22,225 bases of DNA from a virus (taxonomy: Duplodnaviria; Heunggongvirae; Uroviricota; Caudoviricetes): the IMG/VR virus record IMGVR_UViG_2693429779_000006; one strand, 5' to 3'. The translations under genes and the position numbers were made by a program. A model generated the notes under the pieces. It saw only the letters and a program-made list of their open reading frames with translations, did not search any database and was not told the DNA's origin. The number at the start of each line of letters is the position of its first letter. Positions within the stretch are counted from its first letter, which is position 1. This document shows, piece by piece, positions 2,568-22,225 of this stretch.

Positions 2568-3017
2568 ATGAGCGATTTAAAAACACGATTAAAAGAATAT
2601 GAAGGTACTAAAGAGTATCAGGCAAATTTGAAGTACTTCAGAAATGGGAAATTCTATCCATATGCTGATAGTTTAGGATGTAGTACTATTGGATATGGTC
2701 ACTTAATTCAGGCGGGAGAAGATTTTAGTACTGGCATTACTGAAAGCGAAGCAGACAAGTTACTATCTCGCGATTTAGCCAAAACAATTATGCAGGTACA
2801 GACATTAGGGTTAAATCTTCCCGATGACTGGAATGATTTTATTATTATCATGACCTTCCAGTTAGGTATTGGCGGGGTGAAGAAATTCCGTAAGATGTTA
2901 GCAGCCCTGAAAGCACATGATTACCTTGAAGCAATTAAACAGGCTAAGTGTTCTCTATGGTACAGGCAGACACCAAACCGTGTGAATTCCATGATTGCAG
3001 TACTTAAAAACAAATAA
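2568..3017 (+). CDS. GH24 (T4-type) lysozyme, putative endolysin
   Basis: Catalytic-region motifs in T4-lysozyme order: E in KEYEGT, D in PYADSLG, T in CSTIGYGH. No N-terminal hydrophobic signal or SAR segment. This is the only confidently coding plus-strand gene in the window. Confidence 0.8.
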   Translation: MSDLKTRLKEYEGTKEYQANLKYFRNGKFYPYADSLGCSTIGYGHLIQAGEDFSTGITESEADKLLSRDLAKTIMQVQTLGLNLPDDWNDFIIIMTFQLGIGGVKKFRKMLAALKAHDYLEAIKQAKCSLWYRQTPNRVNSMIAVLKNK

Positions 3018-3057
3018 AGAAAAGGCATAGTACGAATGACATACTATGCCTTTTTTT
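3016..3057. terminator. Bidirectional rho-independent terminator between the convergent lysozyme and 90-aa genes
   Basis: Stem GGCATAGTA / TACTATGCC with a 9-nt loop, preceded by AAAGAAAA and followed by TTTTTTT. Confidence 0.6.
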
Positions 3058-3328
3058 ATGGTCGTTGTTTCTGCTGAAGAATTGCAATAATCCTTTCAAT
3101 CTTAACATCAAGTTCATGGATTTGTGTTTCCAGTTTACTTAGTGTATCTCTCATCTTATCCTGATCATCCTCAATACGGGAAATACTACTTTCCAGTACA
3201 GCAATGGTAGTTTCAAGAGTAGCAACGCGAGTTAATAGATCATTCGTATCCTTTGTATTATCTCTAAAGATAGTATAAAGGAATACGCATCCAGAAATAA
3301 CAAGAGCTAAAATAGCACCGATATCCAT
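3056..3328 (-). CDS. Membrane-anchored coiled-coil protein; candidate lysis accessory (holin or i-spanin-like)
   Basis: N-terminal TM helix DIGAILALVISGCVFLYTIF followed by about 65 aa of heptad-like charged sequence. Convergent with the lysozyme gene. AAGGGA upstream of the ATG. Confidence 0.4.
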   Translation of the reverse strand: MDIGAILALVISGCVFLYTIFRDNTKDTNDLLTRVATLETTIAVLESSISRIEDDQDKMRDTLSKLETQIHELDVKIERIIAILQQKQRP

Positions 3329-3340
3329 ACTGAAATCCCT

Positions 3341-3385
3341 TTGTTGTTATTGTTATTGTTATTGTTATTGTTATTGTTATTGTAT
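3341..3385. repeat. Hexanucleotide simple sequence repeat, (TTGTTA)6 with degenerate flanking copies
   Basis: Six perfect TTGTTA units at 3344..3379 read directly, between the stop of the 218-aa gene (3385-3387) and the start of the 90-aa gene (3326-3328). It is out of frame with both genes. Confidence 0.9.
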
Positions 3386-4041
3386 TAATACCCTGTAAAT
3401 GTCGCCAATGCTATCTGGATACCATTATTCCCCATTGCCTGGCGGTAGGTTTTCTGGTTCTTTGAAACGTACTGTAGACTGAATGAAGTACTGGAATTAC
3501 GCCTGATAACCAGACCAGAGTACCCAATTACTGTACCATCATCTGATATGTTCCCCGGACATTGTGACCAGCAGAACCAGGGATCAGCTACTGGAGACGT
3601 TACCGTAATGGCAGTACTGAGATCGGTAGCCGCAGGTGCTGTCAAAAATCCCCTGATACGTGGCATTGTTGCCGCTGATGCAGCAGACCAGATTAAAGTA
3701 CCTTCTTCACTGAACACATCAAGAAAACCAGATGTGGGGGTAGCCGTGTGACTACTTGTCATGAACCTGCCCATGCCAGGCTGGAACATATAGGCACCAG
3801 GGAAACACCATGCCCCGTCTTTCTGTATCTGGAACCAGTACTGTGTTGTGTTCCTGTTAGCTACTACTGATGGCATAACGAAACCGAGCGATCCACCATT
3901 ACCGAAGGCACAGGTAAAGCCTGTGTAGTATCCCGTATCAGTTAGATTTCCCATGGCCTTTACTGCACCCGTCATTATCGACTTGTTAGTACTATCTATA
4001 GTCAGTGCACCCGCTGAATTATATACCTCGAAACCTGCCAT
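3385..4041 (-). CDS. Hypothetical protein downstream of the tail-tip gene, 218 aa
   Basis: Long ORF. N-terminus MAGFEVYNSAGALTIDSTNKSIMTG resembles the N-terminus of the adjacent 98-aa ORF. Gly/Ser/Thr-rich with several Cys and Trp. Confidence 0.5.
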   Translation of the reverse strand: MAGFEVYNSAGALTIDSTNKSIMTGAVKAMGNLTDTGYYTGFTCAFGNGGSLGFVMPSVVANRNTTQYWFQIQKDGAWCFPGAYMFQPGMGRFMTSSHTATPTSGFLDVFSEEGTLIWSAASAATMPRIRGFLTAPAATDLSTAITVTSPVADPWFCWSQCPGNISDDGTVIGYSGLVIRRNSSTSFSLQYVSKNQKTYRQAMGNNGIQIALATFTGY

Positions 4042-8196: not shown

Positions 8197-8819
8197 TACT
8201 TGTATTTCCAGTTCTGATTTTGATTAACTTGACCTAACAGACTAAAGTACTCATCATTTCTATAGTAAGATTGATATACTGAGTTGGCGGCAATTAATGC
8301 AGGTTGTCTGTCTAATTTCTTATAGACAGAATTCACATATATAGTCATTTCGTTTTGCTTCTGATTTGGATCAGTTACTGCCTGTACATAGTCAATAAAC
8401 CCCGTAAACATGAGCATTGAATCAATTACAGTACTATCATATGGATTGAGAATTACTAACTTGATATTCATCTGTGCATCTTTCAAGAAACCACCAAGGG
8501 CAAGAGCACGAACCGAGGCGTTTACATTGCTAATTTTAAAATTGATAGCATCATTAGACATGCCCTTTTGTTCAGAATATGAAGGTAATGAACCACTGAT
8601 AATGTCGGGGAAACTTATGTACTTATAACCATCCAGATCTATATCAATTAGTGAATCCGTCCAGTGAAAACCATTAGTACCTTTTGGTAGTACATCAAAA
8701 CAAGTAACATTAACGCCTAAGCTCATAATTTCCATTAGTGTTAATCTTGTCTTGGTTGTACCTCTGACTAACTTCCAGTACTTAAGAAGATTAGCATTAG
8801 TATATATACCTGAGTCCAT
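8196..8819 (-). CDS. Minor tail protein (gpL position)
   Basis: Called from position within the tail module and 1-bp overlaps with both neighbours. No diagnostic motif. Confidence 0.35.
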
Positions 8820-9376
8820 TAGATGATATTCTCCGTTGCTTTCAATGTAATATTCATGATGTTCCCAATAGGCAATGAATAATCATTGTCTGGATCTAAT
8901 ACAGCCTCGATCATGAGATTGTTATATTTGAGTGCTTCACTTGCCTGTACTGTATTTTGTAGAGCAGGGAAAATAGTAATTGAAGTACTGGTACGTTCTA
9001 CGATTCGATATAGCTTATTGTGATTGGAAAACTGTACCCACTCACCCACAGCTAATGTGTTAGTACTGATAGGTACAACCATATTACCCGGTTTAGTGAG
9101 AGCAGTAGCGGTTACTGCACCAGTCTGTTTACCGTAATATGTACCTGCAAGCCCCAATGACATAGTGAAAGGTTTGCCCTGTGCATATTGAGCTAAAAAG
9201 CTATTCACTTCATTTAGTGATGCAGGATTAAAATTAAGGGTGAACTGAATTTGATAGTATTGAATTCCAGTACTTCTCATGATACGTTGACCTGTCCATG
9301 TTTGATTAGAATAGATCGGTTCAGTACTTTTAATTTGAAAGTTCGTTACTTTTATTTGATTTGAAAAGGATGCCAT
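8819..9376 (-). CDS. Minor tail protein (distal tail, gpM position)
   Basis: Position downstream of the tape measure gene. GAGGT sits 6 nt upstream of the ATG. Confidence 0.35.
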   Translation of the reverse strand: MASFSNQIKVTNFQIKSTEPIYSNQTWTGQRIMRSTGIQYYQIQFTLNFNPASLNEVNSFLAQYAQGKPFTMSLGLAGTYYGKQTGAVTATALTKPGNMVVPISTNTLAVGEWVQFSNHNKLYRIVERTSTSITIFPALQNTVQASEALKYNNLMIEAVLDPDNDYSLPIGNIMNITLKATENII

Positions 9377-9377
9377 T

Positions 9378-9950
9378 TTGTTACCTCGAATATCTTCTTT
9401 CTTTATTTATTTAAAAACCTCGATTCGTATTTTTTTTAACAGGCTTGATTGGCAGGCTGCATCCGTCATCGTTGCTATGTTGTTATTTGCAGGCCAAATA
9501 GGCTATAACGCATATGATAAATGGAAAGAAAGTTCAGATGATGTTTTTAAGATGCGTGTAATCTTATTGAGCGAAATCAACAATAACCTTTTAGCTCTTG
9601 CTACTGGTGGCGATGAGTCTCAGGTGTTAGGCACATATGAAATATGTATTCCTCTTCCAACTGAAGATACAGAAGCTATTAAAAGAGTAGCAACTGCCGT
9701 TTCTTATTTGCATGATGATGTATATTATTCCCAATTAGAAAAATTAGCATCACTCCCAAAAAAAGAAGTAGATGCCATCGTAAAGAGTTATTATTCATTA
9801 TCGAGATTACGTACTCTTTCAACACAGCTTGCATACAATATTAAATACTCACCACCTAAAGTTAAATTATTGCGGGAAGAGTATTACAATCTCTATACCC
9901 TTTCATCTTCTCTTTCACAATATTTGTCTTATCACACGGAAAATCCCTAA
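9378..9950 (+). CDS. Opposite-strand insert (moron) in the tail operon: hypothetical protein with one predicted N-proximal TM helix
   Basis: A 190-codon open frame on the plus strand fills a 584-bp region that has no minus-strand ORF, in AT-rich DNA where long open frames are unlikely by chance. The track start is TTG; the first ATG is at 9477. TM candidate AASVIVAMLLFAGQIGYNAY. Confidence 0.4.
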   Translation: MLPRISSFFIYLKTSIRIFFNRLDWQAASVIVAMLLFAGQIGYNAYDKWKESSDDVFKMRVILLSEINNNLLALATGGDESQVLGTYEICIPLPTEDTEAIKRVATAVSYLHDDVYYSQLEKLASLPKKEVDAIVKSYYSLSRLRTLSTQLAYNIKYSPPKVKLLREEYYNLYTLSSSLSQYLSYHTENP

Positions 9951-9960
9951 CTGGGCTTTC

Positions 9961-12174
9961 TTATGTATTACGTTTTTGACTACTTCTCACAGCTTGAGAA
10001 ACACTATTGGCGTGTTTCTTAAGCATCTCATTAAATTTCTTGTCATCATCAGCTACATCACCCTGGATGATCAATGGTGCGTTAACGGTAATATCACCTG
10101 AAGTACTTCCACCTTCTTGTTTATCCAAGAATGCTGTTAATTTCTTATTCGCTTCAGGCTGCACCACTCTCTCGCCCTGCTTAAGTACAAATGATTTGTT
10201 GTCATAACTTGCTGGTAGTTCATCTACCCCGCCATGGAACTGACCAGCAGCAGCACCCTTTGCAGTACTAATAATCGACATACCAAGTGAAAGTACTTGT
10301 GCATAGTTTGCCAATGAAGCTGGCCAAGGGGTAGCGAGTGCTTGGGCCAATGCTGACTGAATTGAAAGTACTGTCTGTGCAATGCTTATGCTCTTACTTA
10401 GGGTAAATGCAGCTTGTGCAGCCCCACTACTTTCCCCAAACGCATCAACCATGCCCTGTGATAGTGACTGTGCAGTACTTGAGAAGATACTTAACTGATC
10501 CTGTGCATTCTGGTTACTGATTTGGATGGCCTGTGCATTGTACTTTGCCGTGATCTCAGCTTTACGTTTCTCATAGTCCTCATGGCCTTTCAGCAACAAC
10601 TCATTCTGCTGAAGTTCAGCATTCATAGCATCAGCGTTATCTTTCAACTTCTGATCGGTATCGTTATAGGCTAATGGATTACCACCATTGATACGCTGAT
10701 TCTGTTGCTGTGCCAGATACCCCTTCTGATTGTCATTGAGTAGACCGGAACCAATAAGAGCATTGGTATCTTTCAGACCCTGATTAGGATCTTGATAACC
10801 AACCATTGAATTCAGTAAATCAGTACGTTGTTTAGCACCATATGCAGTAGCGTTCTTTAGCATTTCATCAGGATTGATACCGAGTACTTGAGCACTATCG
10901 GTGATGGTTTTAAGAAGTGCCTTTTGTTGTCTGTCGAACTGCTGTAGACGTACCTGAAAACCATCTTCCCCAACTTGAGCAAGAGCAGCTTCCAGATTAC
11001 GTTGAGCCTGTAGGCGTTTTGCATCTGCCGCCTTTTGTGCCGCTTCTGCCTGTTTACGTTGTTGTTCTAACTTCTTCGCTGCATCTTCAGCTTCTTTTGC
11101 CTGATCAACCCATCCGCCAGTAGGAGCGGTAGCAACCGCAACATCGGACTTTAGGTTGTTTGCCAGTTCTTCTAAACGTGCCTTAGCCTGAGCGAACTCA
11201 TTACCCTTGTTGCCCTTATCATCCATGATGCCAGTATTGAGTGCTGCACCCTGGTAGTTTAATGCCCCTGCTGTACGTAATTTTTCCCAGATATCCAACA
11301 TATCCTGTAGAGAACCCTTGGAAGTTTTAATACGTTCATTCAGATCTTCAAACAAACCTGCCTCGTGAGGTTTTTGATTTGCAGCATCATAGACACTGTT
11401 CATGGCATTAACTAAAGGTGATAGGCCATCAGCAATAGTACCTTTAATGCTGGTAGTAAGTTTCCCAAGGTTTTTATCGAATTCAGCATATTTTTCAGCA
11501 GCATCATTAGTTACTTCAGCATTTTGTGACTGGATATAGGCTGTAGCTTGAGCCTCATTATTGAACTGCTGAAGAGTACTAATCATGTGGCTTGAGTCAC
11601 TGGCTAACGTTTCCATTACGTTAACTATTTCACTCTGTGATTTACCTGCATCACGCATGGCGTAAAAGGTGTGGATCACAGCCTGCATACCACCATCAGC
11701 CTGTTTTAAGTACTTGTTATAGTCCTGTAGGTTGAGTCCATATTCTTTAAGATCATCGGATACACCACCGCCAGCACGAAAAGCATCACCGAGCTTATCC
11801 AAGGTATCCTTGTTGAAATCACCAAACTTATCAATCTCAAGACCGAGGCCACTAAACGCCGCTGATAGCTGTTGTAACTGAACCACGGACAATCCGGTAC
11901 TCTTACTGATCTGGTTCATTTCACGCACATATTCACGTGATGATTCTACTAATGCTGCCAGGCCACCAATACCAATAGCCGCAGCACCCGCGATCCCGGT
12001 CATAGCAGTACCGAACCCGCCAGCCATACCAGTTATTCGGCCTGTGAACTCTTCAACAATGCCACCAGCAGTACTACCAAATTCCTCTAATGATTCAGTA
12101 CCAGACCTTAAAGCACGCTGTAAACCGGAAGAATCACCCGTAATATCTACACGTATTCTATTATTATTTGCCAT
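9961..12174 (-). CDS. Tail tape measure protein
   Basis: 737 aa, directly downstream of the G/GT chaperone pair. Gly/Ala-rich hydrophobic N-proximal segment, long Ala/Gln/Lys-rich helical regions, and a C-terminal region. Length implies a tail of roughly 110 nm at about 0.15 nm per residue. Confidence 0.8.
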   Translation of the reverse strand: MANNNRIRVDITGDSSGLQRALRSGTESLEEFGSTAGGIVEEFTGRITGMAGGFGTAMTGIAGAAAIGIGGLAALVESSREYVREMNQISKSTGLSVVQLQQLSAAFSGLGLEIDKFGDFNKDTLDKLGDAFRAGGGVSDDLKEYGLNLQDYNKYLKQADGGMQAVIHTFYAMRDAGKSQSEIVNVMETLASDSSHMISTLQQFNNEAQATAYIQSQNAEVTNDAAEKYAEFDKNLGKLTTSIKGTIADGLSPLVNAMNSVYDAANQKPHEAGLFEDLNERIKTSKGSLQDMLDIWEKLRTAGALNYQGAALNTGIMDDKGNKGNEFAQAKARLEELANNLKSDVAVATAPTGGWVDQAKEAEDAAKKLEQQRKQAEAAQKAADAKRLQAQRNLEAALAQVGEDGFQVRLQQFDRQQKALLKTITDSAQVLGINPDEMLKNATAYGAKQRTDLLNSMVGYQDPNQGLKDTNALIGSGLLNDNQKGYLAQQQNQRINGGNPLAYNDTDQKLKDNADAMNAELQQNELLLKGHEDYEKRKAEITAKYNAQAIQISNQNAQDQLSIFSSTAQSLSQGMVDAFGESSGAAQAAFTLSKSISIAQTVLSIQSALAQALATPWPASLANYAQVLSLGMSIISTAKGAAAGQFHGGVDELPASYDNKSFVLKQGERVVQPEANKKLTAFLDKQEGGSTSGDITVNAPLIIQGDVADDDKKFNEMLKKHANSVSQAVRSSQKRNT

Positions 12175-12526
12175 TCTTTTTCTTTCCTAATACCTGAGAT
12201 TTAATTAACTCCCCTATAGATTTAATATCATTGGATTGAGCCTCTTTAGTTTTTAATTTTCTTTCTTCAGCTTTCTCTGAAGTACTCTTAGTACTATCAC
12301 TAAGCACATCAAGAAAATCAAAATCCTGTACCTTGATACTTTTCCTTGCTTCTGGTGTTAGGTTGCCATTACTGATAGTGGTGTAGTAACACTGGTACGC
12401 ATGTTTCATCATTTCAATCTGCGTACCGGATGGTTCTATAAAAGTATCGTAGATCATAAGCATATTGAGTACATCAGGATCTAAACTAAAGTATTCTTCA
12501 GGTGATAAGCCTCTTTTGTTAACCAT
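12164..12526 (-). CDS. Tail assembly chaperone, T-like part, expressed as a G-T fusion by -1 frameshift
   Basis: The -1 frame is open from the slippery site at 12562..12568 straight into this ORF with no stop (linker reads V-R-G-D-I-E-L-K-Y-F-C-K then M-V-N-K-R...). Overlaps the tape measure start by 11 bp. Confidence 0.7.
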   Translation of the reverse strand: MVNKRGLSPEEYFSLDPDVLNMLMIYDTFIEPSGTQIEMMKHAYQCYYTTISNGNLTPEARKSIKVQDFDFLDVLSDSTKSTSEKAEERKLKTKEAQSNDIKSIGELIKSQVLGKKKNGK

Positions 12527-12558
12527 CTTACAAAAGTACTTTAATTCGATATCACCTC

Positions 12559-12870
12559 TTACTTTTTTTCTACTTCATCTACAGGTTTCGCAGTATTGAT
12601 TAAAGCAATAATTGCTGAGTAAATTTCATTCTGGATTACAAAATCAATAGAGTTAACATTAATTCGTCCATCAATATCTTCTTCTGCGAAGATAGGATCA
12701 CCATTTTCATCTTTTACACATAGGATTAGAGTTTTAGCCACATCAGTGCATTTCTGGAAATCCTGACCATTTGGACGATGAATAAAGATGATTTCACCCA
12801 TTACTTCATGTGGTTTTAATTCTGGTTGTAGTTTTTTCTTCAATTCGTTTAAATTCATTTTCATCTCCAA
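12559..12870 (-). CDS. Tail assembly chaperone, G-like
   Basis: Small acidic protein immediately upstream of the tape measure gene, ending in the slippery heptamer. The track start is TTG; the likely true start is an ATG at 12864 or 12858 (GGAG upstream). Confidence 0.7.
   Translation of the reverse strand: MEMKMNLNELKKKLQPELKPHEVMGEIIFIHRPNGQDFQKCTDVAKTLILCVKDENGDPIFAEEDIDGRINVNSIDFVIQNEIYSAIIALINTAKPVDEVEKK
12562..12568 (-). other. Programmed -1 ribosomal frameshift slippery heptamer A_AAA_AAG
   Basis: Minus-strand codons ...GTA GAA AAA AAG TAA. The heptamer sits in the zero frame immediately before the G stop codon, and the -1 frame continues into the downstream ORF. Confidence 0.7.
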
Positions 12871-12871
12871 T

Positions 12872-12903
12872 AAAAAAGGGAAAGTTGAGCACCTTCCCTT
12901 TAT
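12872..12903 (-). terminator. Candidate rho-independent terminator or attenuator after the major tail protein gene
   Basis: Minus-strand RNA AAAGGGAAG-GUGCUCAA-CUUUCCCUUU followed by a U-tract. Its position would let the tail tube gene be expressed more than the downstream genes. Confidence 0.45.
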
Positions 12904-12909
12904 TTATTA

Positions 12910-13383
12910 TTATTCGCCCGATTCTGGTTTTGGAGTAATCAGACCTGAATCAATTGCTTCACCATCAACTGCAAGGGTGAAAGTCTTAGTTACTACTTCA
13001 TCTTTATCACCACCGATAGTGGTACTTGAAACAAAGCAGGTATAAATTACAAAGAAACCTTCTTTTTTAGTTGCATCGGTAAAATAGCTTAGTTTTACCT
13101 GACAACGTTTCTGATCGTCTGCAAGTTGTTCTAAATTCTGATGTACTGCATTATCTGGTAAGTAGTTAACTGCAAGAGAAATGTCCGGGATTGACTTAGT
13201 ACCCAATAGCTTACGATCATAAGCATTATTGAATGTTTTTACGCTAATTACAGTACTTTCAAAGCCTGAAGTACTGAAGGTGTTTACCTCTGGTACTTCT
13301 ACAAAGTCAGTAGCAACTGTTTTACCAGCACTTGAACCTACTTCTACAGTAAGGTTAGCACCGGAAAAAATATCCATAGCCAT
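12910..13383 (-). CDS. Major tail (tube) protein, short form
   Basis: 157 aa immediately upstream of the G/GT chaperones. Shares DIFSG, NTF, VNYLPD, HQ.L and VVTK motifs in the same order with the N-terminus of the 883-aa protein. Confidence 0.6.
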   Translation of the reverse strand: MAMDIFSGANLTVEVGSSAGKTVATDFVEVPEVNTFSTSGFESTVISVKTFNNAYDRKLLGTKSIPDISLAVNYLPDNAVHQNLEQLADDQKRCQVKLSYFTDATKKEGFFVIYTCFVSSTTIGGDKDEVVTKTFTLAVDGEAIDSGLITPKPESGE

Positions 13384-13441: not shown

Positions 13442-16093
13442 TTATTTATTATTTAATAGCTGTTGTACTAAATCTTTTAGCTGATTAATTTCTTCTTGTT
13501 GGGCTTGAATAGCTCCCATCAAGTCCATCACTATTGGATTTAAATCAACACGTGGATGATCACGAGTGACAATCTCCCCTTCTATTTCAACTGTTTCTTC
13601 ATCATGCTTAATGTACTGCGGAGCAGTCAACTCAGCATCTTCGGCGATAACACCAAACCTAACCCTTTCTTGTTCATCATCCTTGTAGATAAACGTTACT
13701 AAATCTTGTGACATTATCCGATCTAATGCTTCAACTGGATTTGCTGGAGTTATGTCTCTTTTAAACTCACGACCTGATGTACCTTGAGCTTGCATTACTA
13801 ACCATCCAAACCATGTTGTACCGTTCCCGCCTCGTACTCTTAAAGTACCACCACCGTCTATCTGAAGCTGAGAGCGATTTGCCCCTGGGTATCTTTGCAT
13901 GTGCAATAAAGGGGAATATTTTTCACTATAGTTAATACCTGAGTCACCTGGCCCTGCATACATACCGTTAAAGGTGATGGTATTGGCATCTGTCGGTCCC
14001 GAAACAGCGGTATTAGTCATCCATCCTGATTGAACATCAGTTAGGATCGTTCCAGTCGGCCCTTTTAGCCCCCATAGTTTATCCTCTGCACCATTTTCAG
14101 AAATAAAAAGGGTGAGATCAGCCTGTCCAGTCTGTCCCATCGTTTTACCAACCCGAAAACCACCAGATATTTCAGTTGATGTACCAATGTTGCATATCGA
14201 ACGAATACGCCCTCCAGTTACATAACTACCAATTGCCGTAGAGGAAGGGGAAGAAGCAATAACATCCCATTGAGGACTAACTGAAGTACGACTACTCAGC
14301 AAGTTTTCAACCCAGCGTTTGGTAGTCGCGTCAGAATCAGAGACAGGATCTCCTGCTAAAGAAGTTGCACCCGTAGGACGAATCGCAGGCCATAACTCAG
14401 CCTGAGTCTTAACACCAGTACCGCCCTGCGGAATTGCTAATGCTTTCCAGCCAGTGAAAGCACCCGCAATATATGTAGCTGAACCCCATTGCCCTCCATC
14501 ATAAACCACTAATGCAGCGGAAGAATCAGCGGATTTAATAGTTGTTAAATTACTACCTTGATTAAAGCGATCCACCTGAAAGTTTAGGCGAGCACTCAAA
14601 GCATCTGTAGCCCCTGTCCCCCCCTGACCTATACCTAAAGCAATCCATCCAGTACCAGTACTTGCACCCCATGCCCCGTTATCCTGAATTCGGATACGGT
14701 TAGTCAGGTCATTACTCATCAGATCGGTGTACGTAGCACCCTGAGTCAAACGGTTCACCTGTAGGTTAGTACGTGCTGTAGAGAGACTGGATAGATCAGA
14801 AAGGTTACTCGCTTTCTTCATGGAAGCGGAATCAAGGGAAGTAATACTGTCAGCTAAAGCCGTTACCTCTGCATCTACTTCATCCATTGAGTAAACAGCA
14901 AGGTTAATACGTGCTTCTTCCACGTCCCCCAGATCACTTAGATTACCTGCTATCGTAAGCTGGGCATCATCTGTAACCTTCCCTAAGCCAACATCAGTAC
15001 TGGTAAGTACTACATCCTCACTGAGTACATGACCGTTGACCATACGTGTATCAGGTACTGAACCTGTATCTTCACTACTCAGTACTACATTTTCACTAAG
15101 TACATGACCGTTCACTGTACGCGTGTCAGGTACTGAACCTGTATCTTCACTACTCAGTACTATATCTTCACTGAGTACATGACCATTAACTGTCCGTGTA
15201 TCTGGTACAGAGCCGGTATCAGTACTGGTAAGTACTACATCCTCACTTAGAGGCTTACCATTCACAGTACGTGTATCAGGTACTGAACCTGTATCTTCAC
15301 TGTTCAGTACTAAATTGGCCGTGAGTGCATGGCCGTTGATGGTACGTGTAAGGGGTACGTATCGCCCGTCCATCTGTGTAGCGGTATATATGCGTGTCCA
15401 GGCGGTTGTAGCGTTCTTTGCATAGATACTTAGAGTACCCGTCTTTGTCATCGCAAGAGAACTTACAGTAGTGCCATCTACAAGCCCTACTCCCATCAGA
15501 TCCGCCCCGGCAGGATTGCCTGCTTGAGATGATGGTACTTTGATGAAGCTGTTACCCGTAGGTACTGATGGTGAGTACTGAGGTACATCCGTAGTGTTCG
15601 AACCTAAACCGTAGTCCCCCTGATAGATTGGCGATAGTGCGTTAATGGTCATTGCACGTGCGATCACATCATGTGGGGCAAAACTGTATGCCTTGGTTAC
15701 TACTGAACCTTTATCACCGTCCAACTTATAAGAGGTGATATAACCATTCACCATCGCATAAGTAATGGTATTTTCATCCTTATTCATCTGGTACTGAATG
15801 ATGATCTGGAAAAGCTGCTGAGACTTAGCGGCATTATCCAAGAATTGATGTGTAGGATCATCAGGTAGGTAGTTAACTACAATATCAAATGGTGCTACTG
15901 ATTTATCAGATAGTAGTACTGTCCTGTAATCACTATCATACGTTTCAAAATTATTTGCTTCTGAATTTATTGTTAAGGTTGGAAAAGTATTAATCTGTTT
16001 AATTACTACATTGCCTGCTCCCTGTGGTGTTCTGTTACCAATATCAGCATTATACTGTACTGATAATTCTCTTCCTGAGAAAATATCACTCAT
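13442..16093 (-). CDS. Chimeric tail protein: tail-tube-like N-domain, tandem tail-fibre repeats and a C-terminal S74-type intramolecular chaperone domain
   Basis: aa 1-150 are paralogous to the 157-aa major tail protein. aa 249-368 hold five 25-aa repeats (TRTVNGHVLSEDVVLSSEDTGSVPD). The C-terminus reads FKRDITP...ALDRIMSQDLVTFIYKDD...RFGVIAEDAELTAP, resembling the self-cleaving chaperone domain of tail fibres and tailspikes, and ends in a coiled coil. Confidence 0.65.
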   Translation of the reverse strand: MSDIFSGRELSVQYNADIGNRTPQGAGNVVIKQINTFPTLTINSEANNFETYDSDYRTVLLSDKSVAPFDIVVNYLPDDPTHQFLDNAAKSQQLFQIIIQYQMNKDENTITYAMVNGYITSYKLDGDKGSVVTKAYSFAPHDVIARAMTINALSPIYQGDYGLGSNTTDVPQYSPSVPTGNSFIKVPSSQAGNPAGADLMGVGLVDGTTVSSLAMTKTGTLSIYAKNATTAWTRIYTATQMDGRYVPLTRTINGHALTANLVLNSEDTGSVPDTRTVNGKPLSEDVVLTSTDTGSVPDTRTVNGHVLSEDIVLSSEDTGSVPDTRTVNGHVLSENVVLSSEDTGSVPDTRMVNGHVLSEDVVLTSTDVGLGKVTDDAQLTIAGNLSDLGDVEEARINLAVYSMDEVDAEVTALADSITSLDSASMKKASNLSDLSSLSTARTNLQVNRLTQGATYTDLMSNDLTNRIRIQDNGAWGASTGTGWIALGIGQGGTGATDALSARLNFQVDRFNQGSNLTTIKSADSSAALVVYDGGQWGSATYIAGAFTGWKALAIPQGGTGVKTQAELWPAIRPTGATSLAGDPVSDSDATTKRWVENLLSSRTSVSPQWDVIASSPSSTAIGSYVTGGRIRSICNIGTSTEISGGFRVGKTMGQTGQADLTLFISENGAEDKLWGLKGPTGTILTDVQSGWMTNTAVSGPTDANTITFNGMYAGPGDSGINYSEKYSPLLHMQRYPGANRSQLQIDGGGTLRVRGGNGTTWFGWLVMQAQGTSGREFKRDITPANPVEALDRIMSQDLVTFIYKDDEQERVRFGVIAEDAELTAPQYIKHDEETVEIEGEIVTRDHPRVDLNPIVMDLMGAIQAQQEEINQLKDLVQQLLNNK
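14990..15349 (-). repeat. Tandem 75-bp coding repeats (about 5 copies) inside the 883-aa gene
   Basis: Near-identical DNA units are visible directly, for example ...tcactgagtacatgaccgtt...acgtgtatcaggtactgaacctgtatcttcactactcagtact..., each encoding one 25-aa repeat. Confidence 0.85.
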
Positions 16094-16841: not shown

Positions 16842-22183
<5,342 letters not shown>

Positions 22184-22225
22184 CTAGACTGGCCCCCTGA
22201 ATCTCCAGACAACCAGTATCACTTA

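Follow-up and report, generated by a model that had tools for sequence, protein, structure and literature searches.

The window analysed here, the whole stretch of 22,225 nucleotides (nt) from the virus record IMGVR_UViG_2693429779_000006 (Caudoviricetes), covers the structural and lysis arm of a small prophage of siphovirus type, read on the minus strand. It carries the genes for the large terminase, the portal, a protease–capsid fusion, two small proteins, a fibre of 883 amino acids (aa), a 157-aa tube protein, chaperones, the tape measure, the distal tail protein and a J-like tip protein, together with lysis genes. The subject of this report is the 883-aa tail fibre gene (13442–16093, minus strand) and the tandem repeat inside it. 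The gene is intact in the window and, from the list of open reading frames (ORFs) and its translation, is the sole long ORF of its region. Its product matches PHROG tail-fibre families with E values of 1e-34 to 1e-37 and is 100% identical to entries from Shigella sonnei named 'tail fiber domain-containing protein' on more than 100 contigs.

When placed in codon register, the repeat consists of five units of 75 base pairs (bp), encoding five modules of 25 residues (aa 249–373; 14975–15349, minus strand). Unit 1 lies at 15275–15349, unit 2 at 15200–15274, unit 3 at 15125–15199, unit 4 at 15050–15124 and unit 5 at 14975–15049, all on the minus strand. Tandem Repeats Finder called a period-75 array at 15006–15312 (4.1 copies, 80% matches, score 383) and the identical array also at period 150 (15006–15350), while a second repeat search found copies spaced constantly at 75 nt. 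The period is far beyond chance and the frame is maintained. The sequence-only reading had described five head-to-tail 75-bp units inside the 883-aa gene, which is what we find; its coordinates, 14990–15349, were essentially right and left out only the distal 15 nt of the array. Its description of the units as near-identical was overstated: pairwise they share 48–67 of 75 nt (64–89%, mean 73%) and 11–23 of 25 residues, around the consensus TRTVNGhxLSxDvvLtSxDTGSVPD.

Similarity between the units is unevenly distributed. The most similar pair is units 3 and 4 (89%), with an exact in-register run of 37 nt; the other exact in-register runs are of 34 nt (units 1 and 4), 30 nt (units 2 and 5) and 26 nt (units 1 and 3). 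The array is a mosaic, in that the 3' half of unit 1 equals that of units 3 and 4 (26–34 nt) and the middle of unit 2 equals that of unit 5 (30 nt). The internal units have a ratio of nonsynonymous to synonymous divergence (dN/dS) of 0.09–0.32 with a proportion of synonymous differences (pS) of 0.32–0.70; the protein sequence of the unit is thus under selection and most of the duplications are not recent. No competing ORF of at least 40 aa lies under the array on either strand, and no Rfam family matches there.

The array sits between two very different parts of the protein. Upstream of it are a domain resembling a tail-tube protein (aa 1–150; 15644–16093, minus strand), recognized by BLASTP, PHROG, AlphaFold and Foldseek, and a flexible linker with a small, highly conserved β domain at about aa 180–235 (together aa 151–248; 15350–15643, minus strand). 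Downstream are the distal fibre and tip domain (aa 374–766; 13796–14974, minus strand) and an S74 intramolecular chaperone domain (aa 767–883; 13445–13795, minus strand; Pfam PF13884). The distal fibre contains NLSDL...ARxNL motifs, a coiled-coil-like stretch, two modules of ~60 aa, an Ltf-like neck (aa 563–607) and the tip domain. It matches the lateral tail fibres of many enterobacterial phages in tblastn, and phmmer aligns the neck with LtfA of phage DT57C (8hqz_d). The PF13884 (Peptidase_S74) match spans aa 774–822 at 34.1 bits against a cut-off of 22. In known fibres S74 chaperones drive trimer folding and then cut themselves off. Here Ser773 and Lys778 in 'GTSGREFK' align with 'GTSGIEYK' of DT57C LtfA and preserve the S-x4-K pair, which we take to be the catalytic pair as in K1F endosialidase and T5 pb1, and self-cleavage at this site is predicted.

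Units in related proteins were counted with a hidden Markov model (HMM) built from the units themselves. In the first protein matches the array starts at residue 246–252, just after a conserved 248-aa module, and has zero, one, two, three, four or five units. Across 87 DNA loci from IMG/VR and GTDB the first array has no unit in 21 cases, one in 46, two in 13, three in three and five in three; additional representatives at 50% identity contribute 39 proteins with no unit, 33 with one and a single protein with four. The longest array, in a prophage protein of Cedecea lapagei (P0008), has 16 units in perfect 25-residue register with no insertions or deletions over 400 residues. One unit is thus the usual state of the family, with expansions rare and lineage-specific. 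Gain and loss of units in 25-aa steps without a break in frame had been proposed from the window alone, with a comparison of copy number across relatives as the check; the presence of relatives with 0, 1, 2, 3, 4, 5 or 16 units at the equivalent position bears this out, the number varying from 0 to 16 and always by whole units. Such comparisons of sequence support the gain and loss of units on an evolutionary timescale.

The closest relatives suggest how these changes came about. The nearest one (L018, which shares a contig with L002) has three units and is 95.7% identical to the window over the 744 nt upstream of the array; the units that are extra in the window are units 3 and 4. A second close relative (L017) has five units, of which the internal ones are 92–97% identical to each other but only ~75–91% identical to the units of the window, which points to an independent expansion or to gene conversion within that array. 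The two-unit and three-unit arrays of more distant relatives are only 41–59% identical at the DNA level and are thus old. Homology of the fibre gene with both L017 and L018 stops near nt 1500 of the gene (aa ~500), so the distal, receptor-binding half has been exchanged with the anchor and array kept. The array itself was considered as a mosaic breakpoint between relatives and was ruled out, since homology ends well beyond it.

Megablast with the fibre gene returned no matches in 50,697 phage records and 5,426 complete Escherichia coli genomes, megablast with an E. coli-type allele (L019) likewise gave no matches, and a distant relative of the gene was found in only two E. coli genomes. A pattern scan of metagenomes found only two loci, each with a single unit, and a scan of GTDB found only eight loci. 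Nothing relevant on copy-number variation of phage fibre repeats was found in the literature searched.

Counts within S. sonnei come from 15 of the 92 members of the 90% protein cluster, and the figures for this species refer to the members listed. The five-unit array is present on ~296 S. sonnei contigs and a four-unit array on two (P0129; 858 aa). The four-unit gene is otherwise 100% identical to that of the window and differs by an exact 75-bp deletion, which can be placed anywhere within the 37-nt run common to units 3 and 4, the longest exact run in the array. Both carriers (one is GCA_001257935.1) are short-read draft assemblies with neighbouring accession numbers, and we consider a real slippage or unequal exchange and a collapse during short-k-mer (de Bruijn) assembly to be about equally probable. 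The array is essentially fixed at five units in S. sonnei, with at most a rare four-unit allele. Another S. sonnei lineage has a 165-bp in-frame tandem duplication in the fibre gene (window positions 14657–14821), also found on a 4.98 Mb contig, which indicates that in-frame length changes of this gene occur on the short timescale of the species.

The S. sonnei element is a decaying prophage remnant. The first 42 nt read on the minus strand (22184–22225) are an end of the insertion sequence (IS) IS2, with a 100% match to annotated IS2 ends and no strand assigned. The adjoining large terminase gene (20684–22183) begins its homology at residue 134 of a 632-aa homologue, exactly at the IS2 boundary; because IS2 truncates this gene, the prophage is defective and unable to package DNA. 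In other S. sonnei lineages (L093–L095 were compared) a TGG-to-TAG change at codon 568 of the fibre gene (W568*; window positions 14390–14392) is found, as are extra IS insertions in the prophage.

The conserved positions of the unit (Thr3, Val/Ile4, Asn5, Gly6, Leu9, Leu15, Asp19, Val23 and Pro24) suggest two short strands joined by tight turns. Of the known fibre-repeat models, PF03406 (Phage_fiber_2) is absent and PF22337 (Phage_fiber_rpt) reaches only an E value of 6.1 on the window protein; both are also absent from the relatives with 3–16 units. The unit motif does occur elsewhere: it is covered by the PHROG tail-fibre families 17472, 23008 and 23426, and tblastn finds it in annotated tail fibre proteins of Aeromonas, Vibrio and Microbacterium phages (E values of 1e-4 to 5e-12), at 3–4 places per record. 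A profile search of the PDB gave one solved occurrence, a single unit in a 448-aa chain named 'Gp12 short tail fibers' (9f4b_FG, E = 2e-5), and no solved structure of a tandem array of the unit. Both the unbroken 25-residue register of the 16-unit array and the location of the units, after the anchor and before the distal fibre, fit a rod, and most likely the units stack as a periodic shaft in which each would add a fixed length to a trimeric fibre.

Taking these observations together, we think it likely that the array supplies the proximal part of a side tail fibre, in a small prophage of siphovirus type, with five copies of a 25-residue building block, that these make up a periodic rod, and that the array has grown, shrunk and been homogenized slowly by misaligned recombination or slippage, in a prophage that is now decaying in S. 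sonnei. The fibre is ordered as a tube-like domain and conserved small domain, the array, a lateral fibre body related to those of the T5 family and a C-terminal S74 chaperone. Units would misalign during replication or recombination, with gain, loss or homogenization of the array as the outcome, and because a unit is 75 nt every such exchange would be in frame. The rate would be slow, on the scale of lineages rather than of cultures, since the units share only 26–38-nt exact runs and selection holds the protein sequence. At 26–38 nt these runs are close to the shortest lengths commonly cited as allowing efficient homologous exchange in E. coli, which fits a low rate. Across the protein family, the comparisons show that the number of units has changed time and again without loss of frame, and that the exchanges left the mosaic and homogenized arrays described above.

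Several points weigh against this account. The confidence of the AlphaFold monomer is low over the array, falling below 50 for units 3 and 4; no structure shows the units as a trimeric rod, and neither Pfam nor NCBIfam holds a model for the unit. Most relatives manage with no unit or one, so array length may matter little. The only array-length variant within a species rests on two short-read assemblies, and k-mer collapse at the 37-nt run would yield the identical sequence. Finally, the gene of the window belongs to a dead prophage and hence says nothing on present function in S. sonnei.

A history of ancient duplications only, in which the S. sonnei four-unit allele is an assembly artefact and units are no longer gained or lost, is unlikely in our judgement, although it accounts for part of the data. 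The deletion junction lies exactly where a de Bruijn graph with k ≤ 37 would short-circuit, both carriers are drafts with neighbouring accession numbers, and most of the two-unit and three-unit arrays are indeed old. It fails with the two closest relatives, both of which need recent events: the units of L017 are 92–97% alike and unlike their positional counterparts in the window, and L018 has two units fewer despite the 95.7% flanking identity.

Slightly less probable still is that the units are ligand-binding or adhesive modules, for instance weak carbohydrate binders, with copy number tuning avidity and not length. Purifying selection on the unit sequence and the Asn, Gly, Asp and Pro positions kept in every unit are compatible with this, and there is a precedent in the decoration domains of tail tube proteins (Ig-like, that is, immunoglobulin-like; lambda gpV and similar), which bind surfaces weakly. 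Yet no binding-domain family matches the units, a register of exactly 25 residues kept through 16 units is what structural repeats typically show, and the recognizable receptor-binding part of the protein is the swapped distal half.

The sequence-only reading had also pictured an array prone to gain and loss, and a highly unstable array is not what the data show. In its strongest form this would be a fast contingency locus, with slippage producing fibre-length heterogeneity within one population or culture, and we regard it as improbable. In its favour, the tandem units keep the frame and share exact runs of up to 37 nt, and a 75-bp deletion allele and a separate 165-bp in-frame duplication in another lineage have been seen within the young, clonal S. 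sonnei. However, at 64–89% identity and with many synonymous differences the units are far from near-perfect repeats, ~296 five-unit against two four-unit contigs is not a frequent polymorphism, and the two-unit and three-unit arrays of other relatives (41–59% identical at the DNA level) are old and stable. A globular Ig-like β-sandwich related to the second domain of GldM/PorM, in place of a fibrous repeat, can be dismissed almost entirely: the array (as well as P0008 and P0002) does match PF21601 (GldM_2nd; 31.9 bits against a cut-off of 24.4) and PDB profiles give weak matches to PorM (E = 0.13–0.17), but what is matched is a short motif (NIVLSSxDT...VNGKxL) that scores several times over in a repeat, and the match was rejected as an artefact; a closed sandwich could not accommodate anything between 1 and 16 units added one by one, and the context is that of a phage fibre.

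A repeat-built shaft of the kind that we favour is familiar among viral fibres. In the adenovirus fibre, the number of copies of a 15-residue repeat sets the length of the shaft. Like other viral fibre shafts, the present one would be a rod built from short repeats whose number differs between related fibres. The rods of the T4 fibres (gp34/gp12/gp37) are also built of quasi-repeats (PMC3004832), which differ from the present unit: its HMM has no positive-scoring domain in T4 gp34, gp35, gp36 or gp37 (gp12 was not included). The fibres of the Aeromonas, Vibrio (~240 kb myoviruses) and Microbacterium phages share the repeat motif but have different anchors and tips; no copy-number study of these repeats was found in the literature searched.

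The distal part of the protein is closest to the lateral fibres of the T5 family (T5 pb1; DT57C LtfA, PDB entry 8hqz chain d), with which it shares the S74 chaperone and a neck segment (58% identity over 117 aa and 57% over 40 aa, respectively, to DT57C LtfA). Both follow one general logic, in which a long side fibre of three chains carries a tip that can be swapped. T5-type fibres lack the 25-residue unit, which was not found in them. They also differ in how they are held: their N-terminal strands insert into a collar of LtfC that surrounds a tube-like ring (PMC10713586). Searching the window by tblastn with DT57C LtfC and with residues 1–200 of LtfA gave nothing better than an E value of 1.4. 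The window thus has neither an LtfC homologue nor the LtfA N-terminus, and its fibre begins instead with a tube-protein domain.

This N-terminal domain is evidently a paralogue of the adjacent tube protein, as judged from sequence comparison. The latter is the 157-aa major tail tube protein encoded directly downstream of the fibre gene (12910–13383, minus strand; Pfam Phage_tail_3 with E = 2.8e-8, and phrog_158). Residues 1–150 of the fibre are 31% identical to it (BLASTP, E = 3e-19) and match phrog_158 'major tail protein' with an E value of 1.3e-16. They are predicted by AlphaFold with a predicted local distance difference test (pLDDT) score of ~90, and Foldseek matches the model to the solved tube proteins of lambda (gpV), 80alpha, NF5 and monocin with E values of ~1e-7 and template-modelling (TM) scores of 0.57–0.66 on the target; the alignments to full-length gpV cover 255–269 columns. 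No Pfam tube model matches the N-terminal 248 aa, even at E values of up to 10. After the tube-like domain the linker has pLDDT values of 51–60 and the small domain (aa 180–235) values of 85–91. The stretch of aa 151–248 is the most conserved of the family, with 15 of the 17 invariant alignment columns.

The 248-aa module as a whole is rare. Searching 1.84 billion representative proteins gave 141 matches, almost every one at the N-terminus of a protein of 700–1560 aa. In 77 of 85 related loci the fibre gene is followed by a short tube gene that is separate from it. Among the 50,697 phage records it occurs in one, Escherichia phage DCP80 (PQ671644.1, L006), where it is unannotated. In this record, which is classified as Straboviridae, positions 8763–13136 hold a block of head and tail genes of siphovirus-like type. 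Two fibre genes in a row within it both start with a tube-like domain, and a short tube gene comes next; every one is annotated as hypothetical, and this may be a mixed assembly. The combination of tube domain and fibre appears to be confined to a small prophage family, and no published description of a tube–fibre fusion or of the 248-aa module was found in the literature searched, a limited collection.

There are partial precedents for a tube protein with an extension. Lambda gpV shares the tube-fold N-terminal domain followed by a small second domain, and SPP1 gp17.1* and lactococcal TpeX are other extended tube proteins. In the present case a separate paralogous gene encodes the extension, which is not a decoration domain and does not arise by frameshifting but amounts to a whole fibre of more than 600 residues that carries its own chaperone. 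We tentatively propose, at somewhat less than even confidence, that the fibre's own tube-protein domain, and not an adaptor, makes it part of the tail: the tube-subunit paralogue would form or join a dedicated tube ring, the chains would extend outwards as trimeric side fibres, and the 25-residue units would set the reach of the tip. Six tube positions would then have to feed three-chain fibres. If this is correct, siphovirus tails would have a further, distinct mode of side-fibre attachment, and a simple covalent one. It would also offer a handle for engineering, with copy number setting the length of the fibre and a distal half that has already been swapped in nature. The tube-protein anchor is the odder feature of this gene and the part that may repay experimental work.

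As for the repeat, shafts that change by whole units are a familiar viral way to adjust reach to the host surface, and the copy-number differences between these related prophages are ordinary fibre evolution. The array is a clean example of it: the step is exactly 25 residues, unit numbers run from 0 to 16, and unequal recombination has left visible traces. For S. sonnei, in which the prophage is dead, nothing practical follows.

Some other features of the window can be described briefly. On the head side of the fibre gene, a single 614-aa gene (16842–18686) encodes the head protease (Peptidase_S78) fused to the major capsid protein, and only two small genes lie between this fusion and the fibre gene, fewer connector genes than expected there. 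On the tail side, a 190-aa ORF with a TTG start is found on the plus strand between the tape measure and distal tail protein genes (9378–9950); the corresponding place in L002 holds a 208-aa gene on the opposite strand (DUF6216) that looks like a cargo gene. A GIY-YIG (SegE-like) homing-endonuclease ORF adjoins a phage lysozyme gene (2097–2531 and 2568–3017); most other genes of the window run opposite to the lysozyme gene, which is on the plus strand. At 3344–3383, between an ORF of 90 aa that is coiled-coil or Rz-like (3056–3328) and a 218-aa gene (3385–4041), lies a perfect hexanucleotide microsatellite, (TTGTTA) repeated 6.7 times. The G+C content (guanine plus cytosine) is 34–46% throughout the window (1–22225), well below the ~51% of Shigella and E. 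coli chromosomes and consistent with a foreign origin.

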